Shown piece by piece: positions 5,388 through 56,127 of a stretch of DNA of 64,000 nucleotides. The stretch is taken from assembly GCA_963920595.1 (NCBI GenBank), contig OY986949.1, forward strand, positions 310,001 to 374,000, in the 5' to 3' direction. The notes under the pieces were generated by a model. That model did not search any database. It had not been told where the DNA came from and saw only the letters and a program-made list of their open reading frames with translations. Position numbers and translations under genes: made by a program. Numbering within the stretch: position 1 is the stretch's first letter; every line of letters begins with the position of its first letter. The stretch comes from Eimeria praecox. Taxonomy: Eukaryota.

Positions 5388-5473
<86 letters not shown>

Positions 5474-7904: not shown

Positions 7905-7967
<63 letters not shown>

Positions 7968-30097: not shown

Positions 30098-33000
30098 TGC
30101 CTGACCAGCACGAAGTCCCGCTTCCAGGTTTGCAGTACAGGTATATGAAGTAGATCACTTCATATTCATATTCGACGGGGCATGCAGCCTATACTTTGCT
30201 CTTACGCCCTTGTTCTCGCCCTAGGCCTATTAAATAGAGCGTACTGCCTGTTGCATGGCATCCCGTGAATTACACAGAAATCTTGTCTCCATTTCTGAAA
30301 TGTCAGTAGGCTACCTGTACTCAATTCCGATGCAAACAACTGAAAGACCCTCCATACGGCTGGGTGCAACAGACGGAGTGGCGGGGGGCTGCCATCAGGA
30401 CTCCCCTTAGAGCACTGGCATTTGCATGCGCTCGAACTTGATACCGCCTAAAATTCCTGCATACCAAGTCGGAAGCTCGCCCTATTTCTCTACGCCCTGT
30501 GTGTTGGCCACACGTACTAACTGTTGCACAGAAAACGCAAAACTCTACGCTGCTCTGCAGTTTGTCGTGTCTCCGAACAGCCTGTTAGGTTCTCATTAAG
30601 CTTACGTCCCCCAAAGTAAAGAATCATCTCAGTCACTTTCCCCTGTCTATTGGCTACAACCATCCGCACTGGCTGACGGAGGCGTGGGGAAGACTTTCCA
30701 GCCTTCCCAGCCATCCTCCGAGCCAAAGCAGACGCTCATGTTTGGAGCATGCAGCGTACTAGCTTATGCAAGAGGGTCGATTGTTCTTATTTTACATGCA
30801 TTCTATCCATTTCTTGCCGCTGCCTTGCATCCAGAATATTAATAGGCTGTGCATCGGTGAGACTGCTCATGAAAAAGATGTGTCTGAGATATGTGAAAAC
30901 ATCTCTGTCTATTCGTGGCCACTAATCACAAGGCGCTACTGAGCCCTCAATCTCGCTAGCGCAAAATGAGGAGGGAATCAGCTTTTGCTCGCATTCAAGG
31001 CCTTGCACGGGGAGTCAATATATAGTTTAAACGTACTGCCTATTGTATGAAATTTCCGCCTCGCGAAACAGCACAGTCTCATGCCTCAACCACGCTTTCC
31101 CAAATCCGTAAGCAGCATGCAGGAAATACTAATGTGCAATCTAAATATTTCAATTCAACAAAAAATGCCCAGAACAAGCAACAGCACGTCCTTACAGGAT
31201 CATCTTAAATTGATGCAAACGACACAATTCCTGCTCGAGTATTGGTAAGAGTTCAAACCTCCCAAGTACATCTGGGCTGCAGCTTAGATGAACAGTGCAC
31301 ACAGCTATATAGCTGACTAACGGATGTGACATACTTGCTTCAGTATGACGCATTCTCGAGCTTAGACCATCAGTGACACCTACTACACTCACCGTGTTGC
31401 AAAACCAACGTCACTTCCTCAACGCATCGAAATCTCCCTCCTTCAACGCTAGGCCCTCTTTAAATTTTCCAAGCTTCTTCTAAAGAGCAGCAAATCTCCC
31501 CAGTTGGCGTACCATACTGATTCTCTGCGGGCTCCTGGCCTCAGCTGCACCCTTTAACGCATGAGGCATTCGCATTAAAGCCATGCAGCACTTAGCGCCG
31601 GCTAGCAAGACTGCTTTGTTACACACTTGCTGTAACGAAGGCAATGTATCATCCCCCTAAAACGAGAATAATCTAGGTACGCTATCTCTGGTGGACGCTG
31701 CAGGGCATATTCATGGCACATCCCGCAACCCAATCTCTTATACGAGGGAAAGCCACAATGTACAGCAGCGGGTTAGAACTTCAGCTATTATTTCCACAGT
31801 CTCAATGCTCCTCATCGTAGTGATTAGTCGCACCATCTAGTATGTACCGCTGCTGAACCGCCATTATAGATTTTGGCATCTTGGCTATCAGCCGAATCGA
31901 AGCCTTGGGCTATCGCCTTGTCTGGCAGAAAACACAAAGGTCACTGCAAGACAACATTTCAGGGGGATATGGCGTTATAAGAAGGTAACAAACCAAAATT
32001 TTTGGGTTCACACGGTGCCTCTGTTGTATGTGCAGCACACAGTAAAGCGTGCGCTAGACGGCTTCCAACATTCGAGCTGCTGCTATAGTCAACGGCAAAA
32101 TTCTGGGATGCATGCCTCATAGGTCCTTCTTACCGCCTGATGCGTGCAATATACCTGCTATAACAAAGAATGCCTGGTCGTCGCTCTCAAGCATGCTCGC
32201 CTAATGCTTGATGCTCATAAATTTATGGCCCGTTTGGTTATTACTCCCCCAATCATGCATCAATCATGCGCTAGAAGTACAACCAACTACAAGAAGAGCG
32301 CTTCCGGCTAAAGCAATGCTCTAGCAGTGTAACCTGCATGAGCCTAAGCGTGCGTGAACCTGAAAACAGCCGTACGTCCTTTTTACACCATCGAATGACG
32401 GTTTACCCACCGTGGCTTGCCGGCAACCCAGCCGCGCTTCCCTCATGGATTTGACTGAAAGAGGCAATGCCAAGTATGGAGAGCAACATCTAGGCAACTG
32501 CTTGTTCCTCGAATTTCCACGTGATCAAGGGATTCTGATGTTAGCGTGAGGCAACTGAAGGGCACCCAGTCGGCCAGCTGCCTCATGCGCACTCTCTAAG
32601 TACCTTGCCACTATATCAAGCCTATTCTATACTGCACGGCACTAGTCCAATCCATTCGGTGAACTTTAGAGCAATATTCGAAGGGGCATGATGCTAGCTT
32701 CAATCATGTGGGGGGCGCTACAGCACTTCTTCCATATTTTGAGTGCTTTTAATGCATTCAACGCCTCCCAATTGATCTTCTGTTCCACGAGATTCATATC
32801 TTCCTCCATGATTCCAGAGTCCCAAGGCGTATTTGGCGGCTTACTGCCTGATGCACACAACCTCGGTAGTGTCCCCCCCTGCTTCGTAACCGTGGCGCCT
32901 TTGGTCGAACAGTTCGAATAGAACGGAAATGGAACTGTGCGGCGGCAAGGAGAAAAATCCTCAGACCAGCAGGGTTCTTGTTAAGGAGCTGAGCCGGCAG

Positions 33001-36000
33001 CGAACCACGTCGCGTCCAATCACAGTAAGACAATCCAGTTCAAATATACGTCCACTGAACGGCTCGTGCTCCCGCTGCAAAGAGCATGCTTTCAGAAATA
33101 TATATCCACTGAAATGCTTGTGTACAAGACCGGGGTTGGAATCATACTTTCTGGTAGGTCGCACTCCCGTCCCCCCCATGGCACATGGGCACGCCGGTTT
33201 CTCACCTGTTAGCCATTCCGCGACTGCTGAGCGCGCGAACAGATAGCATCTTGTGGCACCATTGACCGCTGAAAGATGCATCAGATTGTTATGGTCAAAA
33301 ATGCGCCGCGTGTTTGGCCATAACAATCTGATGCATCTTTCATCCTATTCGCATGCCAGAAACATGACAGGTTCTGAATGCTGAAGGCAGCTCTGCCGCA
33401 AAGCAAATAAAATGCTGCATATTTAAAGCATGCACGCGTGAAATACAACTTCGTCTAGAATTTACGCGTACCTCCTGATGCATGCCATTGCTGCGTTGCA
33501 ACGATCTGCAGTCCCTCTCTCTCCCTTTCGGAGCCACACAATTATTGTACAAAACAGGAAATTTATCAAATAATAAACGCAAATGCTGCCAGTAGCCATG
33601 CCATCTATGAAACATTGAATATTGAATTGTTGAGATGCCATGCTCACCCGCTGATATACCATAGGATTTTAGTTCTCTCGCCGCGTGCTGCAGTTCCAGA
33701 ATCAGCCTAAATGTTTCGGCCTGCGCGGATCCCACGAACAACAGCGACGCACAAAACTGCTAAATTGCCCCTCCGCCAGACGTTATGCTCGCTAAAAGTT
33801 TTTCAGGCCCATTCCTTCTGATGGACCACTGAGAACATCTGTTTTCTCAGCCAATTCAGCCGTCCACGGGCTATGCGGTTCACACATACCTCCTAATGTG
33901 CAGCACTCCCCTTATGGTGCATGCCCCACTGTCTGAGCGAGCTTTTGAAGAAGCCCACCTTACTGGATAGCGAAGCCGGTTCTCGTAAGCAGGCTGCCAC
34001 AATTCTGCTGAAATGAAAGGTCGCCTTGCGTTTCAGAAATGCTTCGGGATCTCTGTATATGCCCATTTAACAAACAAAAGGGTGTGGGCAAGCACCATGG
34101 AGATCGTCGCACCCTCTGATGCATTGCAAGCCTACTGAACCTCGATGTGCGCTCATCAATTCACATCAGCAACAGGATCATAGACCAGCGTACGTGTAAA
34201 CAAGAACCTTCAGTCGCACAACAGCGCTTTTGGAACAAGGGTACTGGCGTTACCTCTGCCAGCCGCATGCCAGTGTCCCTTTACTGACGTGGTGCGCCTC
34301 TGCAAACACATTTGGTGGTTGGATGCCTCGAATGCATTGCTGGAGAGCTTACCAGCTTATGCACACCGCTTTGCCTACTCCACAACGCACATTGTCTACG
34401 CACATTTCAGAGGCACATCCATGATGGATGCCCAGTTCACGCCCCCGGAACCTGAATTCGGTCCAAAACGACGTCACTCAGCCTATGCATTAAACAACAT
34501 GTTCGTCGCGATCGAGGACGGTACGCCCGCCTCCTGTGCGTGGTAGGATGCGTTGAGCTATGCAGCAGTAGCACCGATGGAATTCTTGTTCACGCCGTAC
34601 TGCCTGGTGCAAGAAGCGCTTGTACACTCATTGCACTCTTGTACCACAAGTCTTTCGAAGCACATCCCTAGTCAAAATTTACAAAACGCAGGAGAATAAT
34701 CCCGCAGGGGCAAACGGTGCGCTTGAGAAGGTCCGCCAAAGACGCTGCAAGCTGCAGCAATCATGCGCTTCATCTGAAAGGCCATAGGATCTTGACTGCT
34801 TGGAACATTCTCGCTTCGCAGGTCTTAAAGTCAGTCGTACTGCCTAATGCATGGCACTATTACTCGCACCTATTGAACTTCCCCCAGCATCATCTTCGCC
34901 TGCCACAGCAAGAAGGCAGTTTCTCACCGGCAGAGCCCAAGAATACTCAAAAGAAAAGTTGTGACTTAATTTACCACACGCTGTGTCACTCTCGCTTTGG
35001 CAGTATATACACTTACACAGTCCTATAGGGATAAGGGAGAGCACGACGTATTTTAAGCGGCATCACAGCATGTCGTGTGCGCCTTACCAACAGCCTGCGC
35101 TCACCTCCTGAGTCATCACAGTCCAGCTGTACCGCCGTGCGCGGTGACGTCTAGCCTTGAATTGCCTCGCAAGATGCCAACGCGGTTGCTACCGGTCAAT
35201 CACCACGAGCGAACCTGCACGCAAGGTTCGGCAACTCCTGGAAAACTAACAGCTTGCCTCTCAAGCATGCAGGAGGTCCGCTGACACTGAATGCCTGCGG
35301 GAAGCTTTATTAACTACCAACAAGGCGCGGCATGCAAGACGCCCGGCTGTGGCCTACTAGCTGATGTAAACCACCTTCTTGCTGTAGAGCCTTACATCAA
35401 CTCGCGATTTATTAGCCGTTGGCAACCCATATTATAAATGCGCCAGCGGCTACGTATCGCAGTCCAACCAGATTGGTGCTCGCCTGGAACATGCAGCATT
35501 ACCATTTTGGCATATGATGCCCTACCACTTTCCCTCTTGCACCCAGGGCACTCATTTGGGATGCTATCTGCCTACCGAAGCCTGTTTTAACACTAAGCGT
35601 CCTTGAAAATCAGTTCAGTTAGCAGCATACTGTCTGGTAAGCCACACCCCCTGCACCGGCACAGCACATCCACAGCTCATCCCCTTTGGCCACGCCAACC
35701 TTCCCCTCCAGCATCTGCTGGCAAGGTGTACCGAGAAACCATATGTGATAAAGAAGTGGCACAAGTGTCCTAAACGCAGTACCGCTCTGTGTGGCAAGCG
35801 CCTCACATTCAGACCCCAAAACAGTTAGGGAAAACGCACTACCTTGCTCATGCACGTGGTTGAGAGTCCGAGCGTACGCCCTGTGAACGATCACGAAGCA
35901 GCGCTCAAATGTAGCGCTTTAATCAAGCACGCCGGAAACTCACCCCATTGCCCGTTTCCATGCAACTACGAAACAGCGTACTGCCTAATGCATACAAAAC

Positions 36001-39000
36001 GCAGGGCATTCATTTGGACCTCTGCTATCCACCAACAACCTGCACCTTGGTAGTCAAACTACTATTAGGGAAGGCGAATTGTGTTGCCATCATAATGCTT
36101 GAGAAGTGAGGTGCTTGGAGTGCGGAACAGTACTTTCGCAATTAGCATCCCCTCCCTAAACGAAGTGCTGCAGCATTAGTACTTGGGCGTCTCAGCATTT
36201 ACAGTAAATTTAACAGCAACACCAGTGCAAGTGTTCTATATATCACGCGCACATCCTGGCCCACGAGGATACTGCACCACCATAAGTCAAGCCAGATCCT
36301 AGCATTCCACGCGCAGCTGCACAGAATACACTTGCTTTGAATACAAAAGGCGCGGTACTGCTTTTCATTAAGAGCTAGAATGCACGGAACATCTAGTTGA
36401 TGCAGCAATATTTCTTTCCAGAGCAACTACTCCACCTGTAGGCTAATAATGCCACTAGTCAACTGTGTCATATGTGCCATTTGAAGTTCCCCAAGACCAA
36501 CCTTCGCAGGCGCGGTCTAATGGCAACGCGCACTGCCTAATGCATTATAATGCGTTGGTGTCATTTCTATGCTACAGAATCAGCATAGCGGCCTGAAAGT
36601 AACGCACGCCCATTGCCGACACTACTCCTAAGCACTGCTGGGAAAAATTCGTTTACGCACTTCCAGTCTCTTCTGCCAGTCCTCTGAAACCTTTAGCTAT
36701 TCAGCGCACCAACTGCACCCAATTTTTATTTGCTTACTATGCTACTCACGTAAACATACTCTACATATTGAGCGTACTGCCTGGAGCACCGAGCCCATCA
36801 GCCGTATGCCCGTCGTGTGCGACGAATGTAGCTACTAGAAAAGGTGCAAGTGGCATGTTTGGACAAACTGAATGAAATGCTAGCATCCAATCGGCAGATA
36901 GCCAAACATCTGCCTGTGCTCGCTATACCCCGGCAATATCACGAGCCCATCAAGAACCTCATCCTGCTGAGTGCTTCACGGAAAACTGCTTATGCAAGGG
37001 GCTGACTAACGAGCGTACCGCCTACCACATGATTTCTCGATGCATGCAGGCTCTCTACATGCGTTTTTTAGACCATGGTCCCTGCAATCTCGTTAAGCGA
37101 GCACACTAGAGGTCAACCGTACTTGCTGGTGAATGCGATTCCCCTGGATGGTGCGTGCAAGGTGCTCAGAAGCCAGCCACGAAATGACACACTTCCAGCT
37201 AAGCCTCCACGGACCAAGCGTTTGAGAAACTAAGCAGCAACAGTACCTGGAGGGCTCGCGAGGTGTAAAATCGTTTTCCCCATGGAGGCATCCAGATGCT
37301 GGTTTACCGATGCAAGTACCTCTTACAGCACTCAATTATTAAACAGTCGTCGCGCCGGCATGTATCTAGTGTCCAAACGCACTGCCTGGTGCATAGCAGC
37401 ACAATGACACTAAATGCTCCGGTATCGAACACGCTTCCCCACGCATGCATGTGCGCTTGTAGAAGCGAAGGCTCATCTACTACTAAATGCAGGCGTATTT
37501 AAGCATTCCGATATGCTAGATAGCAATGATCAACACCTCAAACTACTGCAGTGCTTGAAGTGTTACGAAGCACAAATCATGGGCGTGACACGCGCACGCC
37601 AACGAAGTTCATGCGTGTTTCCCCAGTATGGGACGTATAGCAACCACTAAATTCGACAGTGAAATCAACCCTTATCAGCCATCGTCCGCAAATTGGCATA
37701 CACCTGCAGCACTTGTGATAACCAGATGCTGCACACATGACGGCTCACTCGACTACTGCCATGAGGCATTATAACAGAAGCTCCCCCCAGAAATCCCGGC
37801 GCCGCGTCGCGCTTTTAAATTTCTTCAATCACTTGAGTTTGCAACTCTCAGCGGCCCTTGCACTTAGCCTTACATCACCTCTTCAAAGCAATGATGTCCC
37901 TAAAACGTGCACCAGCTTCTTCAGCTCACAGCCACACAGAAGCATGTTCCGGGAACTGTCCAACGCACCCGCAAGATAACACAATAGCACGTAGTTGGCC
38001 ACTTACCCCTTACAAAATGCTCACGCAGATAGACTACGCTTCAAACGCACTGCCTGGTGATGCACGCCATTCCAGGGAAGGCGGCCACAGCTGGCCGCAC
38101 AAGGCATGCCATGGGCATGCAGAACCCCGCCTGCTTACCCACGCTTGCTTATACCACATGGCCCTGCTTCAGGAGGAGCAAAGTCTACCAGGCCACCTAC
38201 GTAGTGCGCTAATGGCGATTGTGCTTACTTCCTAGTTCAGATTGATATCCCAGAGGAAGTGGCTGCCTTGTGCTTTAACCGTACCCCTCAACCCACATCC
38301 CAGGTTCCCAATGGGCATGCTTCCGGTGCAACCGCGTACGGCCAAACAAAACAGTGCCACAAATGTGTAACTGCACCTTTCCTTGAACGGCACAGAGGCC
38401 GCGAGCCACAACCTCCTGGCCAGATCAAAGGCATTCTAGTACCCAGGAGCCTGTACAGCAGGCTTCGTCCATTTCGACGCGCAGCATAGGCGTACTCGCT
38501 GAGGCATGGCAATAGAGGTCCTGCAATCTATGCACAAGGCTTGTCTTTTCACAAACACATGTTTTGCCCTATGCATTAAAAGTGTGTGCAGTTTGAGCTG
38601 GATAATGTTCGATGATATACGACCACAAAATAACCCCAAATCCCTATAGACTTTATACACAGATAACCCTTCTATTTGGCATTCCGTCGAAGCGCCTGGC
38701 CAGAATTTGTTCCACCTTCAGCGATCCCCTAGTCGGCCATTTCATCTGTACCGTACATTCGGAACTTACCGCCTAGTCCATGCACTCCCGTAGTTTGAAT
38801 GAGCCTTCAACCTCGCATGCGATCCGCACTTCAGAAACAAACGAAATCAAGAATCGAAGCGTACCCTCTGAAGAATGCCTTTTATTTAGTTGCATGAGAC
38901 CATACGGCCCTTTTACTGACTGTGGCATGTCGCTCACACACATGTCGCTTACACAAGATGGACAAGATAACGCACATTCGTGAAATGTGAATCTCTTGTG

Positions 39001-42000
39001 ACGGTGTGCTTGGCCCCTACGTTTCCTGGCAGTGTCAAACATGCTGCGATCTTTGCACTTCAACTGCATGCGCCGTCGGTTTTGTCAACACAGTTTAGGG
39101 ACCGAACACCAAACATACTTTCTAATGGGTGGCACTAGCCAATATCGATGCTTGCAGATAGCGTCCCACATCCGCTCCTCCCACGGTTGACTGCCCAACA
39201 CAGCATGTCTAGTGTGAAACAAGGCACTCAAGACTCGACTGGTCGGAAGATGCTGGGGAGCACCCATAGCGGGCTCCAACTCGCACTTGCATGCGTGCAA
39301 CACTGCAGAAGATCACCGATACCAGGCCACTATCGCAAGTTTGGAGCAATGGAGATTCTGCGGTAATGAATAGGAAGACGTGGGGATCGTAGCCAAGCAT
39401 TCGGTGTGAGCCTGTGGGGAACGGTCTCGAGTGCAGGTTTTGGTGACAGTAGCAAATATTTAAGTGAGAACATTGAGGACTGAAGTAGAGAAGGGTCCCA
39501 TGTGGACAGCAATTGGGCATCGGCTAGCGGGCCCTAAGCGAAAGCATAGCTGCGGGAATTTCGGGGCTTTGCTGCCCTCGTAGTTCGCGAAAGGGAGCCG
39601 GGATAATATTCCTGAGCCAAAACGCTGATACGTTACGGTGGCGTGAATGAAATCGTCGACGCAGGCGGGTGCAACGGGAAGCGTTGTCTTTGCTTGTTAA
39701 CAACCTCTTCACATATATATCCTGCAATCAGACTGTATGGGGACAGGTTTGAGAGGTTGGTAGAGTTTCCTGGCTTTCTGGGAGTCCGGTTAGATTTCCC
39801 TAGCATCCTCTCTGATACATCCTTGCTTGAGCATAGTGAAGAAAACAAACCTACCGCCTTTTTGTGCAGTGCATACGCCTATCAATTTAGTCGGCTGACA
39901 TTTGCACGCGGCCACCCATTCGAGTCGCCGAATCACCGGTGTTGCAATCACTATCCTGCCGGCATAGCCTCCACCATACACAATTTTTGGAGGGCACGCC
40001 TACTGCCTGATACGTGACGCGCAAATACCGCAAGAGCGTGCTCATTAATAATACACACAATGCCGCCAGTGCATTCAGCAGGCCAGCACTGCACTCACCA
40101 GAGCCTCACAAATTGCAGCCCCAAGCATACAGCGCCACACAACCGGCGGGGAGAGGGCTTTGCAGATGTGTAGTGCCCTGTCCCGGCGTCTGCAGCACTG
40201 GAGCCACAATTTAACACAGCAAAGCACTCTTCAGTAATTCCGTAGACTCCTGGAAGCCCTTTGAGCTACGGAGTTTTGCATCGTGCATTTTGCGCATGCT
40301 CACGTCCTGAATCCTCAGTGCCAGCTCCCGCCTCACGGCGGTCTTGCTCGTGTTTGCCACTAAGCCCCTCTTAAAAACACTCAGTGGCCTGCACTAGCCA
40401 TTATGCACCGGCAATTTAGAGGATGCGGGTGCAAATCGCTAACAACCAGCAGCTCCCCCTTGCACTCGCGCAACACTGTCGATTTTGCCTTGGGATTTCC
40501 CTAGCATCCTTATACTCTAGGATAAATACGTGCTTGGGCGTAATGAAGCGAAGAAACCTACCGCCTTTTTGTGTAGCTCATGCGCCTATCACTTTAGTCG
40601 CCTGAAGTTTGCAGGCGGCCACATATTCGAGGCGCCAAATTCCCGGTCTTGCAAACATGATGATTTTGAGTACTAACGATAACTGTAATAGGGAATAACT
40701 TGCATGAGCGGCTCAGCCGCGCGATGCCCATCAGCTGGCTGTAGACCGTTGAGAACACCAAACTACAGCCTTCCCGAGCATCCACTGTTAGGGTGCAATC
40801 TCTATGCTGCCGACATAGCCCGCACCATATACGATTTTTGGAGGCCAAGCCTACTGCCTGATACGTGACGCGCAAATACAGCAAGAGCGTGCTCATTAAT
40901 AATACACACAATGCCGCCAGTGCATTCAGCAGGCCAGCACTGCACTCACCAGAGCCTCACAAATTGCAGCCCCAAGCATACAGCGCCAAACAACCGGCGG
41001 GGAGAGGGCTTTGCAGATGTGTAGTGCCCTGTCCCGGCGTCTGCAGCACTGGAGCCACAATTTAACACAGCAAAACACTCTTCAGTAATTCCGTAGACTC
41101 CTGGAAGCCCTTTGAGCTACGGAGTTTTGCATCGTGCATTTTGCGCATGCTCACGTCCTGAATCCTCAGTGCCAGCTCCCGCCTCACGGCGGTCTTGCTC
41201 GTGTTTGCCACTAAGCCCCTCTTAAAAACACTCAGTGGCCTGCACTGGCCATTATGCACGGGCAATTTAGAGGATGCGGGTGCAAATCGCTAACAACCAG
41301 CAGCTCCCCCTTGCACTCGCGTAACACTGTCGATTTTGCCTTGGGATTTCCCTAGCATCCTTATACTCTAGGATAAATACGTGCTTGGGCGTAATGAAGC
41401 GAAGAAACCTACCGCCTTTTTGTGTAGCTCATGCGCCTATCACTTTAGTCGCCTGAAGTTTGCAGGCGGCCACATATTCGAGGCGCCAAATTCCCGGTCT
41501 TGCAAACATGATGATTTTGAGTACTAACGATAACTGTAATAGGGAATAACTTGCATGAGCGGCTCAGCCGCGCGATGCCCATCAGCTGGCTGTAGACCGT
41601 TGAGAACACCAAACTACAGCCTTCCCGAGCATCCACTGTTAGGGTGCAATCTCTATGCTGCCGACATAGCCCGCACCATATACGATTTTTGGAGGCCAAG
41701 CCTACTGCCTGATACGTGACGCGCAAATACAGCAAGAGCGTGCTCATTAATAATACACACAATGCCGCCAGTGCATTCAGCAGGCCAGCACTGCACTCAC
41801 CAGAGCCTCACAAATTGCAGCCCCAAGCATACAGCGCCAAACAACCGGCGGGGAGAGGGCTTTGCAGATGTGTAGTGCCCTGTCCCGGCGTCTGCAGCAC
41901 TGGAGCCACAATTTAACACAGCAAAACACTCTTCAGTAATTCCGTAGACTCCTGGAAGCCCTTTGAGCTACGGAGTTTTGCATCGTACATTCTGCGCATG

Positions 42001-45000
42001 CTCACGTCCTGAATCCTCAGTGCCAGATTCCGCCTCATGGCGCTCGTGCGCGTATTTGTGAGTCAGCCCCTACCAAAACCATCTAGTGGCTTGTATTAGC
42101 CGCTGTGAGTCAGAGACGAAGGGACGGAAGGAGGAACCGGCACGGTTAGGACGTGCGGCATTTAACGTCTCAATCTCGCTGATCGGTTTTGCACCTGAAA
42201 TCTTCGCATATCAGCTATGAAGTTTCAGACTGATCGTTTATACCAGCTTGTGCATGGAGGATATTCCCGAACTGTGAATTCGCATTCAAGCGCCTTCTGC
42301 GACAGCTGCTTCTTCGTGGCCTACAATAGATCCACAACACGTACAGGTGACAACTGCAGAGATGCTGAGTTAGCAAACCACATACCTGTGAAGCATGTGT
42401 AAGGCGCCACAGCAGATGGTTAATATGATCCAAAGCTCTCTACGCTAGCAAGGCTGCATGCTACCTGGAAAGCCGTCACTGCTTCCTGTGCAAAAGGCAC
42501 ACACTCACACATCATCAGGACCTAAACTCAATCATTCGTCCCAACTCGCTATATTCTGTCGGGAAGACAATGCCCTTCTTGCGGAATGACCAACGTAATC
42601 AAAGGATTCCCCAGGATGGCTTGGTATCAATCTTTTATCAATCTTTACACGCGTTCGCGGGGAATTGTGCTTCCATGCGAAGCAGCGATTTACCGTGCTG
42701 CGCGCTGCACTGAAACCCTAATTGCATGCAATAAGGGTAACATATGGTTGCTGAAGCTTGAATGGCTCCTCAATTACAGCCTGCTGCTCAACCACCCCCT
42801 TGAACACACAAAGACACGGGCGTGAAGCAGAGGCCGCGAGCAGCTCTCTACTGTCAGCTGCTAGAGACAGAAACGTTCAAGATAGCAGCTACAGATTTGT
42901 GACGGACATCTTGTGTTGCCAAATGCCATTCAACACGTTTCTCACTTTTGTAATTAAAAAAGCATGCTTCCTAAATCACCGCTTAGAGAGACACCACATC
43001 AATGCCAGTCTCACCGGCTAGCGATTTGGATCATCAAAAGTGCACGCCCGTGTCTGGGAGGAAGCCAGCCTTCACTGGATACGCTTCCATCATTCGCTTC
43101 CGTTATGAAATGGCCTCTATTAAAGGAGCCCTAAATTGCGCAGGTATTCAAGCTGTTCCCGAAATACAGGCGAATGATAAAGCTAGGAATCAAACCTAAT
43201 CGCCAGCTAAAAGTCTGACAAAGCTGCATCCGAGCACAGAAAAATTCATAAATAAACGAGACACAGGAGTAATTCCTCTGCGCACTGCCATTAGTTCTCC
43301 TGAGTGAGCCACACAGCCCTACGGCATGGTGCTTCAAGTGAACAAACATTCATTTGAAGCGCACGACTGTAGGGAGGCGCTTGCCCATGATTGGTCCCAT
43401 TACAGGGATTAAGCGTACTGCCTGCTATGCGGTACACCCGTGATGCCACAAATGCAGCACCCTTCTGCATTTGTTCACAGTTCCTTAATGAAGTACCAAC
43501 CTCTCTGCAAGCTTGAGTGCCAGCATCCTTACTGGAAAAGGGTAATACCCAATAAAACCCCTGTGAGGCTTGGGGACCGTTGTCCTGCAGGCAAACGTTG
43601 TGCCTCTCATGTTTTACACCCCTCAACGTCAACGTCACTTTGCCCTCTTTTTAAAAGAATCTGGCATTTAAATTGCTTTCATGCAAAACCCTGTATAGGA
43701 AGCGAAAGAAAATGCTGGATCTTTAACATCAAGCTTCCATACATGCCTGAATGTGAACGGCGACCCGATGAATGCTGCAAAACCCACGGCAGCCCAATGC
43801 ACCAAACGACGCCCCTCAGACCAGTAAGGAAGGCGTACATCTCAACACGCATTGCATTAAGCTTCTGGTCTGGCACAATGTGCTAGAGGTTCTTGTTCGG
43901 TCGCTTCATCTTCGGGCCAAGACCCGCCCTGGCAAGTAAGCCAGGAACTGGAGAAGATCAGCTGCATGGTCAGTAGGTCGGTGCTGCTTTTTTTCCTATT
44001 TCTCTGGCATACTTCACCCTCTACCGATTTTAGGCGTAGGAAGAGACTCGCTGCTCAGCCAAACCACTGCTCGCAGCTCTATATTTGAAGAAATGAGCAG
44101 TCGTCAAGTGCTGCTGTGCCTTGTCGGGAATAACGTGACAGTCATTCAGACCAAGCGCAATACGCGTCTAACGACAAAGGAGCTTGGGAGCACCCATGCA
44201 GCCAAAGTAAAGGCCCTTGAAGCCGTTTTCTGCAATCGCTAACTACCCTTTCACGTTCATCATATGCGCTGCGCATGACGTAATATTCAGTCACGCCCCT
44301 GCAGAATGAGCGCATGCTTCGGCCTCCTTATTTGCGCTCAAGCATGCCCTGTGAATAATAGCCAGGGCGAATATTCCCTGACATCCCTTCTTTCTATGGA
44401 AATGTGCTCCTTATAAAGCAAACGCAATCGGCTGCTTCGATTTTGCCGCCAGAAGACAAAAGCATTCGAAAGGATGAACGTGCTAAAAACCTCCTAGTGT
44501 GTAGCGTTTGCGCATTATCATTCGCTTGCTCGTAGGCGCGGCGGGCGCACACGCCGCCGCGCCTACGCACGCCGCAAATTTGCCACTGTTCAAGTGTGAT
44601 ATTTGCACTCACTCTCTGTTGCTTGCATGATACTCATAGAGCGGCGAACCATGCCAAAGTAAATATCTTACTGAGCCTGTCGGAAAGCCCATGATTCCTA
44701 TTATGTGTCTCAGACACTACTTAAAAAGGCAATATATGTATTGAAATCATCTATTCTTCCATTCAATTAGCCGGTTGAAACCATGCAGCCGCTTATCTTT
44801 ATGCCTCACGTTTGCAGCCCTGCGCAGCCTGTACTCTCATCACTGCTCAAGCACTGAGTGCTGCTGCACGCAAGGAGTATCAGCAAATAAAGACGTGGAG
44901 GCTCTCCGAAAGCGTCAACGCGGACATATTTCCACCAATGACCTTGTCAATCGAACGTTTCAGATTGGCTAGTTGAAGGCTGCTCTACAGAACACAAACC

Positions 45001-48000
45001 GGAAAATTCAAAGTGACGGCAACTTAGCCACGTTCTGCAATATCCGCATACAGGACGTGCTGGAGCAAGCAAGTCGTTCCAACAAACAACTCCCTATAGG
45101 CTCATCATATGTGAAGGGTGAATCTGCAGGCTTGGATCTGGAGCAGTTCGCGGGACAACTTCCTGTCCTATATCGTTCACAGTGCGTACCTTACGCATTG
45201 GATTATACGAATCATTAGCTGGCTGGCGAGGCGGATTGCTTGCCGTTGCAACTCACGTCCTGGAAAATGGTACACGTAATACAGTTGAAGCTGCTATCTA
45301 ATGAACAAACAGTTCAGAGAAATGGTACACTACAGTTCTCTCCAACTGTTGTAGCTTCTCCCGTAGCAAAGCCTCAGTTTTCATGCCGCTTTTTCGCCGC
45401 CCTGCAAGGTCTCCTCGCACGGTCAGCCTGCAATTCCATTATCATCTAGTATCCGCTGAAGCACTATTTGTGAGCATCGTGCAGGGAGGAAGCCTACTTC
45501 CTGTTGAATGGGTTAAACCATCACTTTTATTTGCCAGGCATACCACCCAAGGAAGCAGAGAGCTTCACTCACAATGTGTTAGCATGAATTCACGCATGCG
45601 ACGTCTGCATTCAATTAAACTGTGGTCATCGTCTGCATTCGTAGGCGCATTCCTCTTTCCCCATAGCCCAAGTGACATTGTCGATTCATGCATGCCCACA
45701 GGCTAGGCATTAAGCTTGGAGAAGCCGCCTATGTAAAAAGCCTGAATATCACGCCTACGTCCTGCTTGTCAGTGCGCCTGTCGAGCACTGTTCCTCTTTC
45801 GTTCTGCCCTACGCAAGCTGAAACCCAAGCGTAGCCTCACGAAATCGGTGCGGACAGACGAACATTCCTGCTCGCTTCTACACACACAGAGTTCCACCGC
45901 TTCGCCTCGCACCCTGGAGTGTATCAAATGCCGCTGGCATCTTGTGTCGTAGGGGGTGTGCATGTCTAGTAATTAGTATACGTACTGCCTAATCAATCAG
46001 CTTCCCCTAGCGCTGGAGACGTCCGCGCTCAAATTACTCTCAAAAACGCCGTGCCAAATGGCAGTGCTTCAGGAACATGTTAGAGCAGGCGTTGCATATG
46101 TTATCAATTATTAAATGATCGTGAGCACGAAAGCAGCAGCAGCAAGGTGTCCCAGGTACGCAGCACAAGATATTTCTAGTTGAGGTCTCACAGTGTTAGT
46201 TGCGTTATCAACACTATCCCGGCCCTTGCAAACTAGGAGGTCAGTTAGCAAGCCTTCAGGCGCCCCTGGAGCACTCAAAAGTGGTTTGGAGCCAGTGCAT
46301 ACTCTCTGAAGCACGAGCATTCCGAGTGCCCTCAGTGCAAACCGCTTCTCACCAGGCATTCATTATCGTCATGCGCATCGTTGTCTGTCCGCGTCTTGAA
46401 CCCAGGTGAGGGGGCAGATATTAACAGGCGGCGTTGGTAAGGGTTGGTCCCAACCCTCAGCTAATACACAACCAATCGCCCCATGAATGCATGACACGCT
46501 TACACAGTGTCAAAGATCTTCTGAATACATGTATATACATGCCTAGCTCCCAAATGCTTTGAAAGCATCCCAAGAACGACCAGCACATAATGCAGGCTTA
46601 CTGCCTGATGCATGACACCCCCACACTAGACGTGTGCCCGCGTGGCGGCCGCATGCCCTAGCATCACGCCACGCCTACTCTAGAAGAAGTGCGGATATTC
46701 GTGTGCAAACAATTCTAACTCGACGTTCCTCGAGCATACGGCTTCAGTACCATTCTCCTGCGCTGCCACCCACCGAAAATGCTCTCCCCTTCGTCCCGAA
46801 TTCCACGCATTTTAAAGCTTGACTCACCAGTGTGGTGGCACGTATCTTGACACTCACAGCCTAAGGCACGATGCTTCCACACTACAAGTGTATATGCCTG
46901 GTCTGTCTATCTGCTCGCTGCGGTTCCGCAATTCCACAGTGTGACTTATCAGGGAGCAACACACGCATACACTGAAGAAGTAAAGGTAAACTTGCGTTGG
47001 CAAGCGGTATAATTGAAGCTTGGGAGTTAGTTTCCAGGTAAGGTGTCAAACATACTTCCTGACGCACGAAATCCCGAAGCCTGCACGATTCATTCCATCA
47101 CTCACCCCTGCTTCACAGTTCCCAACGCAGGCCACTTGTTGAAGGTGGCCACACACGCATGAATCGAGCTCAGCAGGTGAGGCGGCATCTGCTCAGCTTT
47201 GTGCCGCTTTCAGTTCACGAATCACATTATGGACGATTCCGCACACCTGCACTGACGCCCCAAAGCTCTCCGTTACCTCCGAACAAGTGCTCGTCCATTC
47301 ATTCAAGAGCTCAAGCCTACTGCCTGGTTCAGTGCAGTTTTCCTTTGTTGGCATGCACGCACGCGTGCCACTCGTCCAAATAAATTGGTTACCATACAGA
47401 GCTTCCCAGGCAAACAGTATAGCGTGGGGAAACACCTATCAGGACAGCAGACGCTTCCGGTACGTGCTCTTGCAGGCTTTCGAATACATTGCAGCTAAAC
47501 CAGCCAGCACTGGATAATTTCAGAAGCCTATTCGAGCTTTCACATGTTACGAAACACCTCGTGAAAATTGTCAGATATGTGACGGACTGTCTGATAAGCA
47601 AGTATCATGTAGGGATAGCGTGCGTACTTGCCTTCTACCTCTTCAGCCTATCGCTGGCCGTGCACGCTAATGCTCCAGGCAAACGCCAGAGGCCTTACTT
47701 AATCTGTGGCCTTGAGTACAGATGTGCCTAGGATCCGCATCAGTGACATCCTGCAGGCACTGTGGCACAACGTCTGGCACCATCAGAACACAGAGAGCGA
47801 GCATCATTTCAGGGGCCTGGCGCAATCGTCAGTTTAATTTCAGAAAGCAGGCTAAACTCACTGCCTGGAGAATAACACTTTGAGATACTCCCGTACAGCC
47901 TTGAAGCTGGCGAGTTTCTCGTCCGTCGGCCGCACCGCCCAGGCACACGCTCAACCTATCCTTTGCCGATAGGCAAAAGTGGTTAGAGCGCAGTGATCAT

Positions 48001-51000
48001 GAAATACCTGCCTGAGAAATTAAACTAATTGCTTGTCTACACTGCTCCGACTCCACCGAACAAGTTTTCTGTTTAAATACGAAACACGCGCACCATCTGA
48101 TTAACGATAATCAATATAAAAGGCTGCCTCACCGTGGTCTCGGCAGAGAATGCGCTTGGAAAATGTAGAAGCACCCTCGTCAACGCACCACTGCTGACCC
48201 ATCTGTCAGCTCAAACACTTAACCATCCACGGCAGGCCACTAAAGACCCTGAAGTATCTAATTGGATCCACAGAGCGAAGCATCAGCGTTTGCCGCTTGC
48301 TGAAACGTACCGCCTGATGCGCAGCACCCGCCTACTGCCACAAAACACGCTGGCATCTTCTTTATCCTCCATACCATCAGGTTTAATCTGCTTGACCAAA
48401 TGCAGGCTCGTTTCAAACCAATAAACCGTCTGCATGTAGGATGAAACACGCTGGCATTTGATACTTTTCGCCTTCCCATTGGCACGCGCCTCAGTGCTGA
48501 ACTGTGGCACACTTGTTGAAGAGCCTCATCACGTTTTACTTCGTCCCCAGAACTAATCGCGGAAATCGGAATAAGCGCAACTATAGTACATAATTCATAG
48601 ATCTTATTCACAGTCGTAGCGTATGGGCAAAAACCTGCATGATAGCAAGCATACTGCCTGATGCATGGGACTAATCCGATGCCACATTTTATGCTGGTTT
48701 TCTATATGTGAGGCGTCCGACAGTGGGGAGAATTCAGTCCATCAGTCGCAAATGCCTCTAATAATATCCATTTCTTGCCCTCTATGTGAGAAGGTAGGCC
48801 TGGTCAATCCCCCATGCGTTCAAAACACCAAGGATTGAAAAAGCATCGCGGTGAAGCCGCAGTATGGCATCCAAGACAGTAGTTATATGCAGCATGCGGG
48901 GGTCGAACATACATCCTAGTGCATGGCACGAACTTGCTGCATAGGCATGCAGCACTAGTCGATGGTTCTGCCTATTTCCCGCACGTCACACATAAACGTC
49001 CTAACCGGCCTTAAGCACTGACAAAGCTAAGCGGGGCCAACGAACATTGTGCCTACAAGTGATGCGCCATCTTCTGCAGCCAGCTAGGGCCGCTTTTCTC
49101 TGTGCTCCATTCGCGGCAACACTCCCACAGAATAGTATGCGAGGCCTGGCCATTTCAACTTGTTTTCTGGGCAATCGTTTTGGTCTTACACCAGCATGCA
49201 CGCCTACCGCCTGATGCGTAACCCTCGCGCATTGCCACAGCGCAGGGCGTCTGCCATAGAGTAAGCCGGGCCTTCTTATAAAAAAGCTTTCACTGTAAAG
49301 TGGTAAACCCATTAATCAAAAGGGCGAACGAGCAAGAGAGGCCATTCTCAAATCAAGTAATCAAGATAATCAAAAGCATTCAAGCACCGGCGGGAAATCC
49401 CCAACGCTATTGTCGGTCAACGTAGGACTCTTCAAGGTGCGCAAACTGCGGCGCAAGCGTACTGCCTGACATAGAGCAGTCTACTACTACCGCAGTGCTT
49501 GCTGCGTGCTACGCATCAGCCACAGCTTCGCAAAGCGCACCCAAGGTGCCTGCCTTTATTCCATTGTGTCTCTTCCCACCCATCGTGAACAAACAAACAA
49601 TGGACTGCATAATTGCAGCGTCGTGTCCTCATTTTAACAGACTCCTCAAATCTGCGTACAAACATGGTCAAGCACTCTTGCTGCAGTTTTCCGATGTGCT
49701 CAGCCTAGACGTGAAGCGTACAGCCTGATGCATCACGAAGCATAAAGGGTGTGTGCCACCACGCTTGATGCCCGTGTAGTCTAATACAAACGTGCAGACA
49801 ACATTTTATAGGGGGAATAAAACTAAAATTCAGTAGAACAGGAAGACTCTCTTTGCGTGCAGAGTACTCCAACATTACAGTCCCGGTGCTGTTAAGTTGC
49901 CACACGTAACCGACAACACCCATAACCGATAACGCCCAAAACAGATGTACTGTTATTGGTGGTAAACCTTACCGCCTAATGCAAAAGCCTTTCACATAGC
50001 TGTAGTGTATATTTGATCCTTTCAGTTAGCCACACCTCTGGTGTCCGCACTCGATTCTGATGAGGAAGCTCAGGCGCAGTGGTGAATAACCACCCTAAGC
50101 ATGTGGTATGTGGGGAGAGGCCTAGCACCACCGCTATATTCCCATACTGCTTTTTGCAAATGGATTTAAAGGAATCCCACATTGCAGGGCCCCCAAACAC
50201 GGCCCCTGCTTTCCCAATTACCCTCCAGCCGCTGCCTGCGCTCAGGGTTTAAAGGTCAAGCGTACTTGCTGTTGTATAGCATTCCAGACTACCACGCTGC
50301 ACGTCGACACTTGAAGCATACGCACCGCTCTCATTGCTGATGGGCACGTTTTGTTACCAAGGATCAGTTTCAGCTGGTGCCTTGCATCCTGATTGGCTCT
50401 AGTATTCAATGAGGCGCATTTAGCAGTCTTTTGTCTCCTACAAATTTTAAAGTACAGTATGCCTTCGCATTTAGACGTCACTCCTACCACCTGAAGTATC
50501 ACATCCCCCTTCGGCTCGGTGAACACATGCACTTCATTCGTCAGTGAAGAGTCAGTAGCCATTCGAGGTGCACACACATTCATAATCGTCCCAGTTAGCA
50601 AAGGCTGCACTGCCAAATGCTTAGGAGTCCACGGCACCCCCACACTTTAGTTGGGTGGCAACGAAGATGTCCCCCAGCAGCTGCTTCTACCTCACCCGCC
50701 TGTAGGGTAACCGTACTACCTAGTTGATAAATACCTCTACTTTCCACTGTACGGCAATGCATTCCATCATTCAACCATTCCTTTGGGTAACAAAGTGCTC
50801 GTTCGGGAGCATCCATCCCCAATCATCTAATCCCGTGTGTCACGTGCAAGCACTGAATCTCAGGATAGTGCATTATTGTGAAAATGCCAATAACGTAATC
50901 ATAACAACGTCGCACGCTCCATCTATCTTCTAATTAAACTTCCAGGAATCCCGCATTTACGCGTACTGTCTGCATGACGCTTGCATCTTGACAAGATTTC

Positions 51001-54000
51001 CCCCTGTTCATTACTTTGTAGTCAGCCTCACATAATCAGCAAAATGAAGTACTCCTGCAAGGCTAAAACCTACGTGAATTCGACTTCCAACAAACGATAT
51101 GTCCACTCCCTGCCGGTGCAGATTAATAAGCATTGATACTATCTCTGGAAAATACAGTAGGCACTGCAAGGCTTTACACTTTCGCTGGAAGCCTGCTAGG
51201 CTTGCGGCTCACTCCAACACGCCAGATTAATTAGGCTATTGCCTATATGTAACATGTGCTGACGGTGAGGCAAAACGAACCTCCTGTAAAACGAATATCT
51301 GCCATGTGGCTTGTTTCTTGTCAGCATGCATGGCAGTTCCAGACAAATGCAAGCATGATCTGGCACGTTATTGGCCTACCTACCACGCTGATGTACTTGA
51401 GCTCTGTCGCCACTATTCCAAATGATTCAACAGGGGTGTTGGTAGACAGTCCAGCGAACGTGCTGACCAAATAGCTCTCACACACGACACTCGAGCCTAA
51501 AAGGCAGCCACCTAGGTTTTTGAGAGGTAGGGGAAAGCACGGGAAGAAGGCTTTATTTGGGACAAATAAAATCCCCAGTGAAACAATATTTTCAAGATGC
51601 ATGATATAATCCTGCACGTTTTGGTAAGCAGATGTTAAAATGCAGTGAACAGAGTGCGCGTCCCCCTGCTGCCTACAGGGCATTGTCATCAGCAGGCATC
51701 CGCGTCTCCATCATACTACATTGTTAGTCGCACTTTGTGGTCCATATAATACGCAAATGAAACCCTCAAGGTTTTATTGCCTGCTAGACAGTGCCAACGT
51801 GCTGACAATGAAAATGCCGCGTTCGCGTATGCAGGCTCCCGCGAACGCGGCAGAATCACGCAAGGATGCCACAACCCAGATTTGGGAATGCGACTATCGT
51901 CTTTACCTCGTTTCACCTGCCATCCGCCTCGAATGCCTTTAGCCATCATCTGCCTATGCTGCAGCATCGCGCCGCACGCTCCTCCTCACACTTTCCCGTA
52001 AGCGCATTATCTCCCTGTGCTTAGCATAGACAATTTCATCCCACAAACCCTGACGCCTACTATCTACGTATAAACACATTCCAGTCCGGCACTACTCCTC
52101 TTGCGGCTTTCTGTCAGTTTTTGGTGAATGCAGGACCGGGCTGCTATGGAGGGACTTCACAGCTAACGCATCGCAGGAACATAATCTGCCGTCCGACAAC
52201 TTCACTAGAATATGGATAGGAGGCTTTTTGCGGAAAGCGCACTTTCTGTAGAGCATTGATTTACCAAGTATTGGGCTCTACTGGATCAGATGCTTCAATG
52301 AACCACATCCTGATTCCGACGGAGTTGCCACCACTAAGGATATTTCTCCTTTTAATTTATCTTCAAACAGTGAAGTTCCTTTTACCTGGTTGGAGGCGCC
52401 ATTGCCAGCACATACATTCACTGATCTCTATATAAAAGGCAACACAAGCCCCACGAAGCGCCGGGCTAGACGGAAGGCTCATGATAACCTACTACATTAC
52501 TGTCTGCTGCATCACTGTCCACAGTCCTTGTAAGTGAATCCCTCGCCGCCACCTAGGACGTTAAACCTGCCTGATCCAACTTGGAAACAGCGTCGCAGAA
52601 GCTTGGGGTTTCAATTCGGTTACGCAAAACCTTGGACACCCTCGCAATCTTGCTGGTACAGTGTAAGCGAAAATATTCATTCCGGAGCACTCTACCCATA
52701 CGTCTCCCCTCGCAAGCTACCAAGGCGCCACCAACTGTGTTTATTGTTTTGGTCCGGCAGAAAACCCCATAGCGCAGCGTGGCGTGCCTGTGAAACTTAC
52801 AGCCTGTGCAAGTGGCAAGATTTGACGCGCTCTTGCATGCATGCATGCTCTATCTGAAAGGTATAAATGCATGCGACTGTGTCCACCCGCTTGCTTCAAC
52901 ATTGGCGCTCAGTCTCTAAAGTGTACTAGAAATCTGTTCCTTTTTACGCAGCTACGCACTGCCTGCAGCTCCGAAATCCCCTTTCGGTTCGCACCGCAAG
53001 CAGTGTAAACAAGCAGTGTGGCAATGACTGTTGCTGCAACGAGTCATTTATTTCCACCGCTGTCTGTGTAGCCGTAACCTGGCTCAAGGGCAACGGTCCG
53101 CCGGAAGTATCGAAACGCAGCAGCATGCGGAAGTCTCGAGCGGAACATTCTACAGGACGCCCACACTTTGTGTAGGTAACCCCGCATATGCTCACCATCT
53201 AGAGGCATGAGGAATTGTGCTACACATCTAAATGGGCTCATGCAGGCGGTACTGCACCACGGCTTCTAACGCATTCGCAACAAAGATCGTTCAACGCATT
53301 GCTACATACCAAGGACAGACTCTTCAGGGCTGGCCCCAACTGCCAAAGAGTGGTATTTAATATGCCTAAACTGCTCCAGTTCCCCAAAATGTTTCTGCAC
53401 CGCTGTAGCCTCGCCAGACCACTATGCGGATAGAAGCGCCAGCACGCCGATTTAACCAAGAATGGGTTGATGCGACTCACTACCCTATAATCTATGGCAG
53501 CTGCAGCATACTTCCTGCACAAACGTTATGCCGCGCAGTTGTGTTCCGAATAGGTGAGGCCAATACCCAATCCTTCACAATAAATATGCCAACCATTCAT
53601 CAACGCGTAGGCTGACGGACTCGTTGTATAGCAGCCACGCAGCTTGTCATCATAGCAGTGCTGATCCTTGCTTGATCATACTGCCTGCATCACGATATCT
53701 GTGAACTACATGCTGCAGAATTCAGCCAAACTATACGACAATGATACGGCGGGAAACGGCGTTACAGAGCTTTCGTCACGCTGCTTCCGCTTGGCCTCAC
53801 TGGTTGTACCATACTTTTAACCTTGCCAATGAAGACGTGTTTATCATGTCCTTGCCTGGCTTCTACACGTAAAGGCCCGTCTATCTCAACCAAGAAGCAA
53901 CCGGCATGCATTGCTAGACGCCCTAGCCTGCGAACCGTGGGAACTCCCGTATGTACTGGCGCATCGTTTCATGCAGACGCCCTCGCTAGAGCCACAAGCC

Positions 54001-56127
54001 GCTCTGCTGCATCTCCCTGCACAGCGCTGCTTGTTATCCTATACCGGGACTTCAGGCGCCGTACATTGAAAATGCGTGGAAAACGTGGAGGGCACGCGCT
54101 ACAGTTAAAGCCGGGAGGCACTCTGTTGATTCGTGTACCATGCAGCACACAATCGTGCTCAAGCAGAGCGTTCACTGTTCGTTGAGCGGCTACCACTGCT
54201 TGCTACTGCGGTTTATAGGGGGAGGCCCCGTACTGGTAATATGATGCCTCACGGGCAATTTTTCAAGTTTCCGCTGTTCCCCCAAACCCTGATAATTAGC
54301 ATTCCCGATATAGCTTCGCCCCCTACCCTACCGCTTGCCTACATTCTGTGTAGCATGAGGTCGGATTGTACGGCTATTCGTGCGCTGATATTCATATACA
54401 TGCTTTAGTTCCCATACTGCCAATATACCAGCAATGCCTTGCGCAGTCAGAGGACAATGAGCGCAACAGAGTGGTTGACCTGTTCAAGGCTAACGCTATA
54501 ACCCTCCTGAGCAAGCACGCACTTTCTGTAGCAGCATAAATGTGTACTGGATGCTGCAAAGCTGAGCCCAAATGCGCGAGAAAGGTACAGTCAGATATAC
54601 CGTTTGCAGCAGCTTCCACGATGAGCTCAGTTGATCCAATGCGTCATATCATGCTTCCACCGCTGCCAAAGGTGGGAGCCCTTTGCCTCAACTGGCTCTT
54701 AGCCACCAAAACCCCTCCATCGCACTCGGGATGCGAGTGGTAGTACGCGCACACAGCGGCATACCAATCTTCAACCCTCGATTTTGTAAATCGTACAAAC
54801 TCGCACATGTTCTGCAACACCGCTCCGTGCAGAAACCCACGCTAGAGCCGCGGGTGGGATTCTGCTCCATCACCCTCTATTACCACGCCTGGTGTTCTAT
54901 ACAGCACCTCTGAACCATTTGGTCCAAAACGTTCTGAACACCGCACTCTGTACCAATAAACACGTACTTCCTGCGGAGAACGCCTGCCACTGCGCGGCAA
55001 TCGCTGGTTTCAAGCCCCTGTGATGCACAGCTGCCTTCACATTTCGGGTAGATTCTTCAGGGCGTCCTATACAATAGCAAACTCCAGTCTAACTGCATAT
55101 ATCGGTTCTTGTGGTCATTAACTAGAGGCGTCTACAGGCCACTGACATCTATGAGCGTACTGTTGTCACAGAAGTCTTGCAGCACAAACACGTTCGAGGA
55201 TCACAAACGCAGCTTTGACGCCATGTCAGCGTTCCCACCTACAAAGAGCGTGAACTTCCCCAAGTACGCGCAAGGGACGGAACATCCACTGCATACTGCC
55301 TGTGTAGGAAGATACCAGAGTGCAAGTCCAGAGGCAAAACTCTAAAACCCCCATACAACCCACACTCTCTGCATCGGCCGCTTTGAGACTTTCCAGGGCT
55401 GCACTCTCCAAGCGGGTTCCGCAAGGAGGACGCCTAGCGCTCTATGAAGCTCACCAGCCATTCTTAAACACCAGCAAACGCTTGTAAGTCATCCTGACAC
55501 AATATATGTCAAGCTCGCTTACGCCTACATTGGGAGTCCATTTGCCTGCATGGTTCGTGGACAGCCTAACTAACATTCACACAGCAACTGCCACGGATGA
55601 GCGAACTTGTTGCAATGGTTTGTAATATGCCTAATTCAACTACAGCGAGCGGTCAACCTAACCTAACTCTGCACAGCAACGGCTAGTATTCATCGTTCGA
55701 TGCGCAAAACACAGCCAAAAAGGAGAGCAAAGCTGAGCAAAGCTATTGTGCACGTATAGTAAAAACTCGCGAAGCAAATGTAAAGTCACATAATTGAACC
55801 TGGTGTGAGCTCTGTCACGTACCAAAAAGCAAAACCCTGCCTACCGTACTCTTCCTCTCCCACCAGTTCACGGACAAAACAACGGTCATAGACAATCTGG
55901 ATGGCCAATATGACACAGTGCAGCATAGCGACGCTGCTGTGGACATTTGCGAGCCGCCGGGAAGTATGCAACGAAATGCTGTTTAGAAGTGAGGCGTTAG
56001 GCCGCTCCTGGTCCCGTGATGCTCTATGTTTGACACCAGACCACGGCAAATGTAGGCACCCCCCCATCTTCCACTTCGCGGTAGGTTCAGCAAGCGTGCA
56101 CTACAGACAGTACCGCAATCTTACTTC
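30098..56127 (-). CDS. Putative micro-exon gene segment made of about 85 single-codon (3-nt) exons; predicted Ala/Glu/Arg/Asp-rich alpha-helical low-complexity protein (partial; termini not located)
   Basis: Minus-strand AG|NNN|GT sites, given as lowest coordinate and codon in transcript order: 56125 GAA, 55297 GCA, 54968 GAA, 54523 AAA, 54343 AAT, 53682 GCA, 53512 GAA, 53196 ATG, 52960 GCA, 52801 GCT, 52501 ACA, 52243 AAA, 52061 ATA, 50967 ACA, 50717 GTA, 50488 GTG, 50266 CAA, 49973 GCG, 49722 GCT, 49463 GCA, 49208 GCG, 48913 GAT, 48655 GCA, 48311 GCG, 48094 ATG, 47862 GCA, 47588 ACA, 47321 GCA, 47056 GAA, 46858 GCT, 46602 GCA, 46303 AGA, 45986 GCA, 45759 GAC, 45498 GAA, 45257 GAC, 44613 AGA, 43419 GCA, 43015 CCG, 42778 GCT, 42006 GAC, 41706 GCA, 41413 GCG, 41155 GAC, 40855 GCA, 40562 GCG, 40304 GAC, 40004 GCA, 39855 GCG, 39119 AAA, 38865 AGG, 38770 GCG, 38496 CGA, 38229 GAA, 38051 GCA, 37383 GCA, 37123 CAA, 37019 GCG, 36778 GCA, 36534 GCA, 36253 GAT, 35982 GCA, 35840 GTA, 35631 ACA, 35358 CTA, 35105 GAG, 34841 GCA, 34601 GCA, 34353 CTG, 34113 AGG, 33890 GAG, 33648 CGG, 33472 GAG, 32845 GCA, 32593 AGA, 32376 GAC, 32134 GCG, 31834 ATG, 31627 CAA, 31335 CAA, 31037 GCA, 30760 CTA, 30518 TTA, 30245 GCA, 30098 GCA. 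A few may be chance matches and some exons are probably missed in the gaps. Confidence 0.72.
39790..42100. repeat. Tandem repeat with 851-bp period (about 2.5 near-identical copies plus a diverged, shortened partial copy)
   Basis: CCTACTGCCTGATACGTGACGCGCAAATAC recurs at about 39999, 40850 and 41701; the ORF track repeats at 40014/40865/41716 and 40594/41445. Confidence 0.95.
44531..44567. other. Perfect 14-bp GC-rich inverted repeat (hairpin) with a 9-nt loop
   Basis: CGTAGGCGCGGCGG (44531-44544) and its reverse complement CCGCCGCGCCTACG (44554-44567). Confidence 0.85.

Follow-up and report, generated by a model that had tools for sequence, protein, structure and literature searches.

The micro-exon genes (MEGs) of flatworms are the closest described counterparts, in working, of the locus presented here. 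They have been reported from Schistosoma, Echinococcus and Hymenolepis (PMC10526429, PMC7653826), and these reports describe exons of 6–81 bases, mostly of 15 (3–81 in the abstract), with introns that are short at the ends of the gene and longest in its centre (PMC10526429), and a working definition of at least seven exons, at least half of them under 70 bases and of a length divisible by three, in runs of at least four (PMC7653826). We describe an array of predicted exons of only three bases on the minus strand of a 64,000-base stretch of Eimeria praecox DNA (contig OY986949.1, positions 310,001 to 374,000), here called the window, within which all coordinates are given. We consider it probable that the array is a spliced gene in which some 80–90 or more consecutive residues would each be encoded by one predicted 3-base exon with phase-0 GT-AG introns on either side; joined together, the codons would likely form an Ala-rich, charged alpha-helical rod. 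Splicing of the sites into a coding message, in one form or another, appears very likely.

MEGs share with the predicted array consecutive tiny exons divisible by three, whose skipping would keep the frame, longer introns between them, difficult annotation and expansion through tandem duplication. With 79 predicted 3-base exons in a row, known from the sequence alone, the array would fall within the working definition. The exon-length profile reported for MEGs is a different one, as only length 3 is enriched here and the run is 80–90 long. In MEGs the longest introns are central, whereas within the window the introns shorten towards the 3′-end, from about 650 bases upstream to about 260 downstream, with the 5′-end beyond the window. 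Because the definition would apply and the exon-length profile does not, we describe the array as working like a MEG and do not class it as one; in its predicted working it resembles the flatworm genes but is far more extreme. Isolated exons of 1–3 bases are known from mouse Ncam and Drosophila troponin T (PMC8042270), plants have microexons of 1–15 bases whose flanking introns are removed consecutively (PMC8831610), and 3-base exons occur in Amphidinium carterae (PMC12584245). These cases indicate that spliceosomes can include single-codon exons, as predicted here, but in the accessible parts of the sources they are single exons with no long chain described, whereas the array is a chain. A literature search, with most subscription journals outside its reach, returned no report of a long run made up entirely of 3-base exons.

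Across the window the motif YAG-NNN-GTRNG is matched at 130 places, of which 122 lie on the minus strand and eight on the plus strand. Dinucleotide shuffling, repeated 100 times, gives 34.6 +/- 5.9 matches and never as many as 130. Between 30.1 and 56.1 kb the minus strand carries 84 sites with acceptor, three bases and donor (plus strand, four), about ten of which are expected by chance, and each of the other 30 exon lengths from 0 to 30 gives 5–22 sites. The enrichment is restricted to length 3, and 6- and 9-base exons are not in excess. The array of sites that the initial annotation read as one-codon exons is thus real and far above chance. Spacing measured without any length prior places 33 of 70 intervals between strict sites at 190–350 bases. 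Donors read GTRNG, frequently followed by CT or CTT, and acceptors read YAG or sometimes AAG, often with TGCA just before them and without a pyrimidine tract. GC donors at length 3 are not enriched, and no branch-point consensus is prominent (YTRAY, 25 versus 23 of 79; CTRAY, 17 versus 9). A satellite was considered as an explanation of the run and rejected, since Tandem Repeats Finder gives no array in the region.

A parse of the chain that was scored on the flanks only, blind to the triplets, yielded 73 sites; five with atypical donors were removed and 11 rule-based sites added, giving a final list of 79 sites in 30,100–56,127, the longest unbroken run being 29 sites. In the parse 48 of 60 intervals measure 190–350 bases, a regularity that is partly by construction because the parse uses a spacing prior. 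The predicted exons amount to 237 bases, or 0.9% of the 26 kb. The parts of the predicted gene are as follows.

57025..63946, minus strand: upstream extension with a further 12 strict 3-base sites, at intervals of about 340–900 bases, mostly about 650.
52061..56127, minus strand: less regular 5′ part, 12 listed sites spaced 156–825 bases, acceptors mostly RCAG.
30098..50969, minus strand: dense run of predicted 3-base phase-0 exons, 67 listed, introns mostly 190–350 bases.
29843..29845, minus strand: candidate stop codon immediately following an acceptor and lying 252 bases past the last donor, a distance equal to the modal intron length.

Triplets of the dense run would encode Ala, Glu, Arg, Asp, Lys, Gln, Leu and Met, and those of the upstream extension are more varied and less Ala-rich (Asp, Arg, Cys, Thr, Glu, Ser, Ala, Leu and Met). 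The array does not start at position 56,127, where the initial annotation had set its boundary: the 12 further strict sites reach 63,946, which gives the run a span of at least 34 kb, and length-3 sites number seven against 0.7 at other lengths in 60–64 kb and six against 2.3 in 56–60 kb. As the sites run on this far, the start of the gene likely lies outside the window. The triplet at 29843..29845 is suggestive of a terminal stop codon; the acceptor before it is weak (score 2.2), 44 of the 879 YAGs within introns are followed by a stop, and there are several alternative acceptors. Two introns of the 5′ part have in common a 114-base stretch of 65% identity (53,933–54,044 and 54,789–54,902), possibly the trace of an old duplication.

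In recursive splice sites AG and GT adjoin with no base separating them, and such sites lie inside very long introns. At this locus the adjoining arrangement is found at six sites, against 84 at length 3, and the introns are about 260 bases long. This bears on a different account of the units, namely that they are splicing stepping stones (recursive-like or decoy) or parts of a non-coding transcript, with the three bases removed or left untranslated. Such an account would agree with the lack of a long coding exon in 64 kb, and the excess of G over C on the minus strand, which runs throughout the window (about 50% G+C), would fit one long transcribed unit. However, there is no enrichment at length 0, stepping stones are unnecessary for introns of 250 bases, and the triplets follow the genetic code, so that we rate this account as quite unlikely. 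Introner elements are families of similar introns and produce mass intron gain with shared intron ends, in which they are like the array. The 51 regular introns here are nevertheless mutually unrelated, scoring as shuffles do (mean local score 20.3 versus 19.9 shuffled); they therefore form no introner family and no young repeat, and the 40% of GCN triplets is not the product of simple recent copying. Random insertion of the introner type would also have left exons of 6 and 9 bases, and these lengths show no enrichment.

Evidence that the triplets act as phase-0 codons comes from 73 non-redundant triplets, six duplicated copies having been removed, and from column shuffles of the three triplet positions, which preserve the splice preference at each position. 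Gly, Pro and stop triplets occur once against 9.1 expected, and triplets for helix formers 60 times against 44.8 (P<=5e-5 for each). Without GCA (n=51) the depletion persists with P=0.007 and the helix-former excess with P=0.003; when all GCN triplets are set aside (n=44), the broader class of Gly, Pro, Ser, Cys, His, aromatic and stop triplets still counts one against 5.5 (P=0.005). Neutral decay from a GCA founder would predict 8.8 Thr, 8.8 Val, 3.7 Gly and 3.8 Ser, where 2, 2, 0 and 0 are seen, and 1.3 Arg and 0.6 Asp, where seven and six are seen; Glu, Lys and Gln are underpredicted as well. Within the triplet, mutual information is significant between positions 1 and 2 (0 of 10,000 shuffles) and between positions 2 and 3 (P=0.03), and across exons none is significant (P=0.3–0.6). 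Pyrimidine endings are used where Asp requires them (6/15) but are rare in four-fold boxes (3/39, P=0.01). The column shuffles, the coupling within triplets and the Asp endings support the proposal of the initial annotation that the triplets are read in phase 0 under selection at the protein level. The last triplet base is mostly a purine, and Gln appears only as CAA and Lys only as AAA.

Translation of the blind 79-site list agrees nearly residue by residue with the peptide that the initial annotation had put together, a string that we recount at 85 residues, 37 of them Ala. Some weaker or closely spaced sites used for that peptide are excluded from the list (52503, 47590, 42780, 39857, 38772, 37021 and 35842), and a Lys at 33150, absent from the peptide, closes one of its gaps. 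A permissive scan adds a stop at 31382, whose donor is weak, and two Gly triplets off the regular spacing, at 35880 and 35650. Two stops had been cited against frame +1, and both are present; with five seen and 5.3 obtained from shuffled order, such stops exclude frame +1 and no other frame.

Further sites of the same type are found in a region of nested duplications downstream of the array, where comparison between copies is possible.

209..28397, minus strand: nested segmental duplications of 56–98% identity with sparse 3-base sites.
18578..21123 (about 18.6–21.4 kb), minus strand: 550-base tandem unit in five copies, each with one site of acceptor, Glu triplet and donor.

Duplication units in 1–28,400 measure 550 bases and about 2.4, 3.4, 6.8 and 17.7 kb. 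The sites in this region differ in make-up from those of the array, and they may belong to a second, perhaps different gene or form a further part of the main one. When diverged copies are compared, 12 of 25 cells retain both AG and GT at spacing 3, whereas the 12 other spacings give 0–30%; three further diverged cells retain AG and have GT switched to GC. This conservation supports selection on splicing. In four copies of about 58–60% identity a 9-base AG-to-GT motif is kept on the minus strand (28,139–28,147; 15,422–15,430; 13,054–13,062; 9,805–9,813), which may represent an exon of 9 bases or the end of one that is longer. CA microsatellites lie at homologous places in two of the duplicated units (5,389–5,496 and 7,906–7,965). 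Three exon-like frames on the plus strand in 22,368–24,580 were considered as candidate coding sequence and set aside, having no Pfam family and no long exon conserved against the diverged copy.

A number of results weigh against a helical protein read in phase 0. Without all GCN triplets the helix-former excess taken alone is not significant (P=0.14), counting only the 23 distinct codons gives P=0.03–0.15, and the contrast in pyrimidine endings loses significance without GCA (four-fold boxes 3/17, P=0.24). Avoidance of AG-ending triplets is likewise not significant alone (0 versus 1.95 expected, P=0.11). The initial annotation had argued from a peptide free of stops; since 0.35 stops are expected (P=0.65), this is uninformative. 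In the 12 long gaps of the run no convincing missed exon of another length was found, and neither a long exon nor a start codon, a signal-peptide exon or a clear last exon was identified in the 64-kb window, whose longest reading frame is 194 codons from stop to stop. No homologous locus was found outside this genome in searches that did not include the joined peptide. In the downstream duplications, compared in 23 pairs from eight hand-picked families, triplet positions 1 and 2 are conserved no better than the flanks (0.65 and 0.61 versus 0.61) and position 3 is unchanged in 23 of 23 pairs, with about seven events of which one is synonymous, and several copies are without their sites. Read in phase 0, this pattern would be the reverse of purifying selection, and since the third base downstream is invariant, it can evidently be held by splicing, which weakens the argument that the initial annotation drew from synonymous sets.

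The helix itself is the part of the reading for which the numbers are borderline. In the longest run of 29 residues the helical moment gives P=0.06–0.07 at 100 degrees and P=0.09–0.14 at 102.9 degrees; moment and salt bridges in this run together span only P=0.06–0.14, and the two shorter runs have no helical moment; these values also count against the helical reading. The heptad periodicity that the coiled coil of the initial annotation calls for is not significant (P=0.09–0.14 at 102.9 degrees). The label of a helix would thus rest on residue composition, with borderline periodicity.

Frame +2 is nearly open, with one stop against 2.0 expected, which is a further point against phase 0. Translation in that frame, with phase-1 introns, would give a Ser/Arg/Gly-rich product, and its one stop falls at a gap where the weak site at 52503 would remove it. 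The stop count is, however, not below chance (P=0.34), and no coupling is seen (P=0.41) between the last base of one triplet and the first base of its successor, the pair that frame +2 would read as codon positions 1 and 2. Phase 0 is favoured because coupling is found within triplets and none across exons, and we regard frame +2 as very improbable.

A more serious alternative is that the 3-base exons are spliced but their protein is barely constrained or diversifying, the Ala bias coming from a GCA founder cassette together with splice preference, and that the gene makes, in place of a selected helix, a variable protein, either of low complexity or at the surface, with many isoforms that arise by exon skipping. 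The initial annotation had itself cautioned that ancestry or splicing might account for part of the GCN bias, and this caution is borne out: Ala exons share an acceptor motif (14/25 versus 7/36, P=0.006), as common ancestry or splice compensation would be expected to give. The non-synonymous changes and lost sites of the downstream duplicates and the lack of significant helical periodicity point the same way. On the other hand, the depletion of Gly, Pro and Ser persists without GCA or without all GCN, decay from GCA misfits the observed triplets, and the downstream sites, being different in make-up, may belong to another gene. We consider weak constraint unlikely, and favor the reading in which selected phase-0 codons would form an Ala-rich helical rod.

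Similarity between introns of the array is limited to local tandem copies. Three features of the run bear on its history.

39793..42101, minus strand: recent tandem triplication; the 851-base unit carries three introns together with triplets for Asp, Ala and Ala.
39290..39750 (approximate), plus strand: fragment of a eukaryotic large-subunit rRNA gene, within an 882-base intron between sites 40006 and 39121.
33,270–33,342: near-perfect inverted repeat of 73 bases within one intron, resembling a small hairpin element.

The 851-base copies are 92–97% identical, the third falling to 80% at its end. The rRNA fragment is divergent with its pairing largely kept, contig depth is very high there, and its insertion explains the unusual length of that intron. 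An rRNA piece and a hairpin element within introns, gaps in the run without a 3-base site, and broken sites downstream, such as the 550-base copy at 20023 that has lost its acceptor, could be taken as signs of a dead relic, that is, an old tandem repeat or pseudogene with leftover splice-like motifs. Against this, the insertions fall in introns, and the intron bodies are without detectable similarity, yet at least 70 acceptor-donor pairs are exact. Exact pairs amid fully diverged introns need selection until recently, and we give very little credence to a relic.

A search of sequencing runs with 26,100–36,000 listed no RNA run. Contigs from two DNA runs of one sample, which may be the window's own source, agree with it fully and without gaps over pieces as long as 7,253 and 5,754 bases, the comparison leaving out 39,901–44,099, which includes the 851-base triplicate; the pattern is therefore not an assembly artefact. 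No intron-shaped joints were seen in the contigs of the two runs, which as DNA runs are not informative on expression. Differences from the window are given for the best-supported 40 in each comparison, with 113 and 1,064 more beyond these. Patches over 34,050–58,100 also occur in a minority version, which is diverged by about 10% and has about one fifth of the main depth, and the upstream end of the window is present in high copy.

62090..64000, no strand assigned: high-copy stretch with four of the upstream 3-base sites, depth 3–14 times baseline in X1 and about 40 times at its maximum in X2.

Many diverged copies of 62.1–64 kb are present in the sample. The minority version and the high-copy stretch could possibly represent a tandem block, a paralogue or a second strain, and for the high-copy stretch a gene family is a further possibility. 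A metagenome scan with a 19-base consensus motif returned 12 loci, roughly the number expected by chance, and none of the 12 has an excess at three bases.

If the array is spliced as we propose, each intron would be recognised alone (intron definition) and the introns removed consecutively, as the plant report describes for single microexons (PMC8831610), so that a 3-base exon would never have to be recognised by itself. The run may have grown via tandem duplication of cassettes consisting of an intron plus a codon, a process which the 851- and 550-base repeats would show under way and which would explain why only length 3 occurs; after duplication the introns would have diverged past recognition and the splice signals stayed. 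The triplets would then pass two filters, one set by the protein, which admits helix formers and Asp and no Gly, Pro or Ser, and one set by splicing, under which a purine is last and the exclusive use of CAA and AAA would avoid a second AG before the donor. An exon that is skipped, lost or duplicated would alter the protein by whole residues and never shift the frame, and for this reason we suggest that the helix is likely a spacer or stalk with variable length and face.

We hold the balance to be even on the wider proposal that this is a gene or gene family with more than 100 consecutive single-codon exons, perhaps making up nearly the whole protein, in which less than 1% of the DNA is exon and 90 or more introns are spliced faithfully. 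Such a gene would perhaps evolve by gain, loss and skipping of single residues. If true, the locus would mark an extreme of exon-intron structure, with about 80 chained single-codon exons that are unrecognisable as exons; ordinary RNA aligners cannot map such exons, and genes of this kind would be invisible to annotation. The order and fidelity of the spliceosome without exon definition would become directly testable, as would cassette duplication as a route of both mass intron gain and protein growth, and the length of the helix would be tunable by splicing, a single residue at a time.

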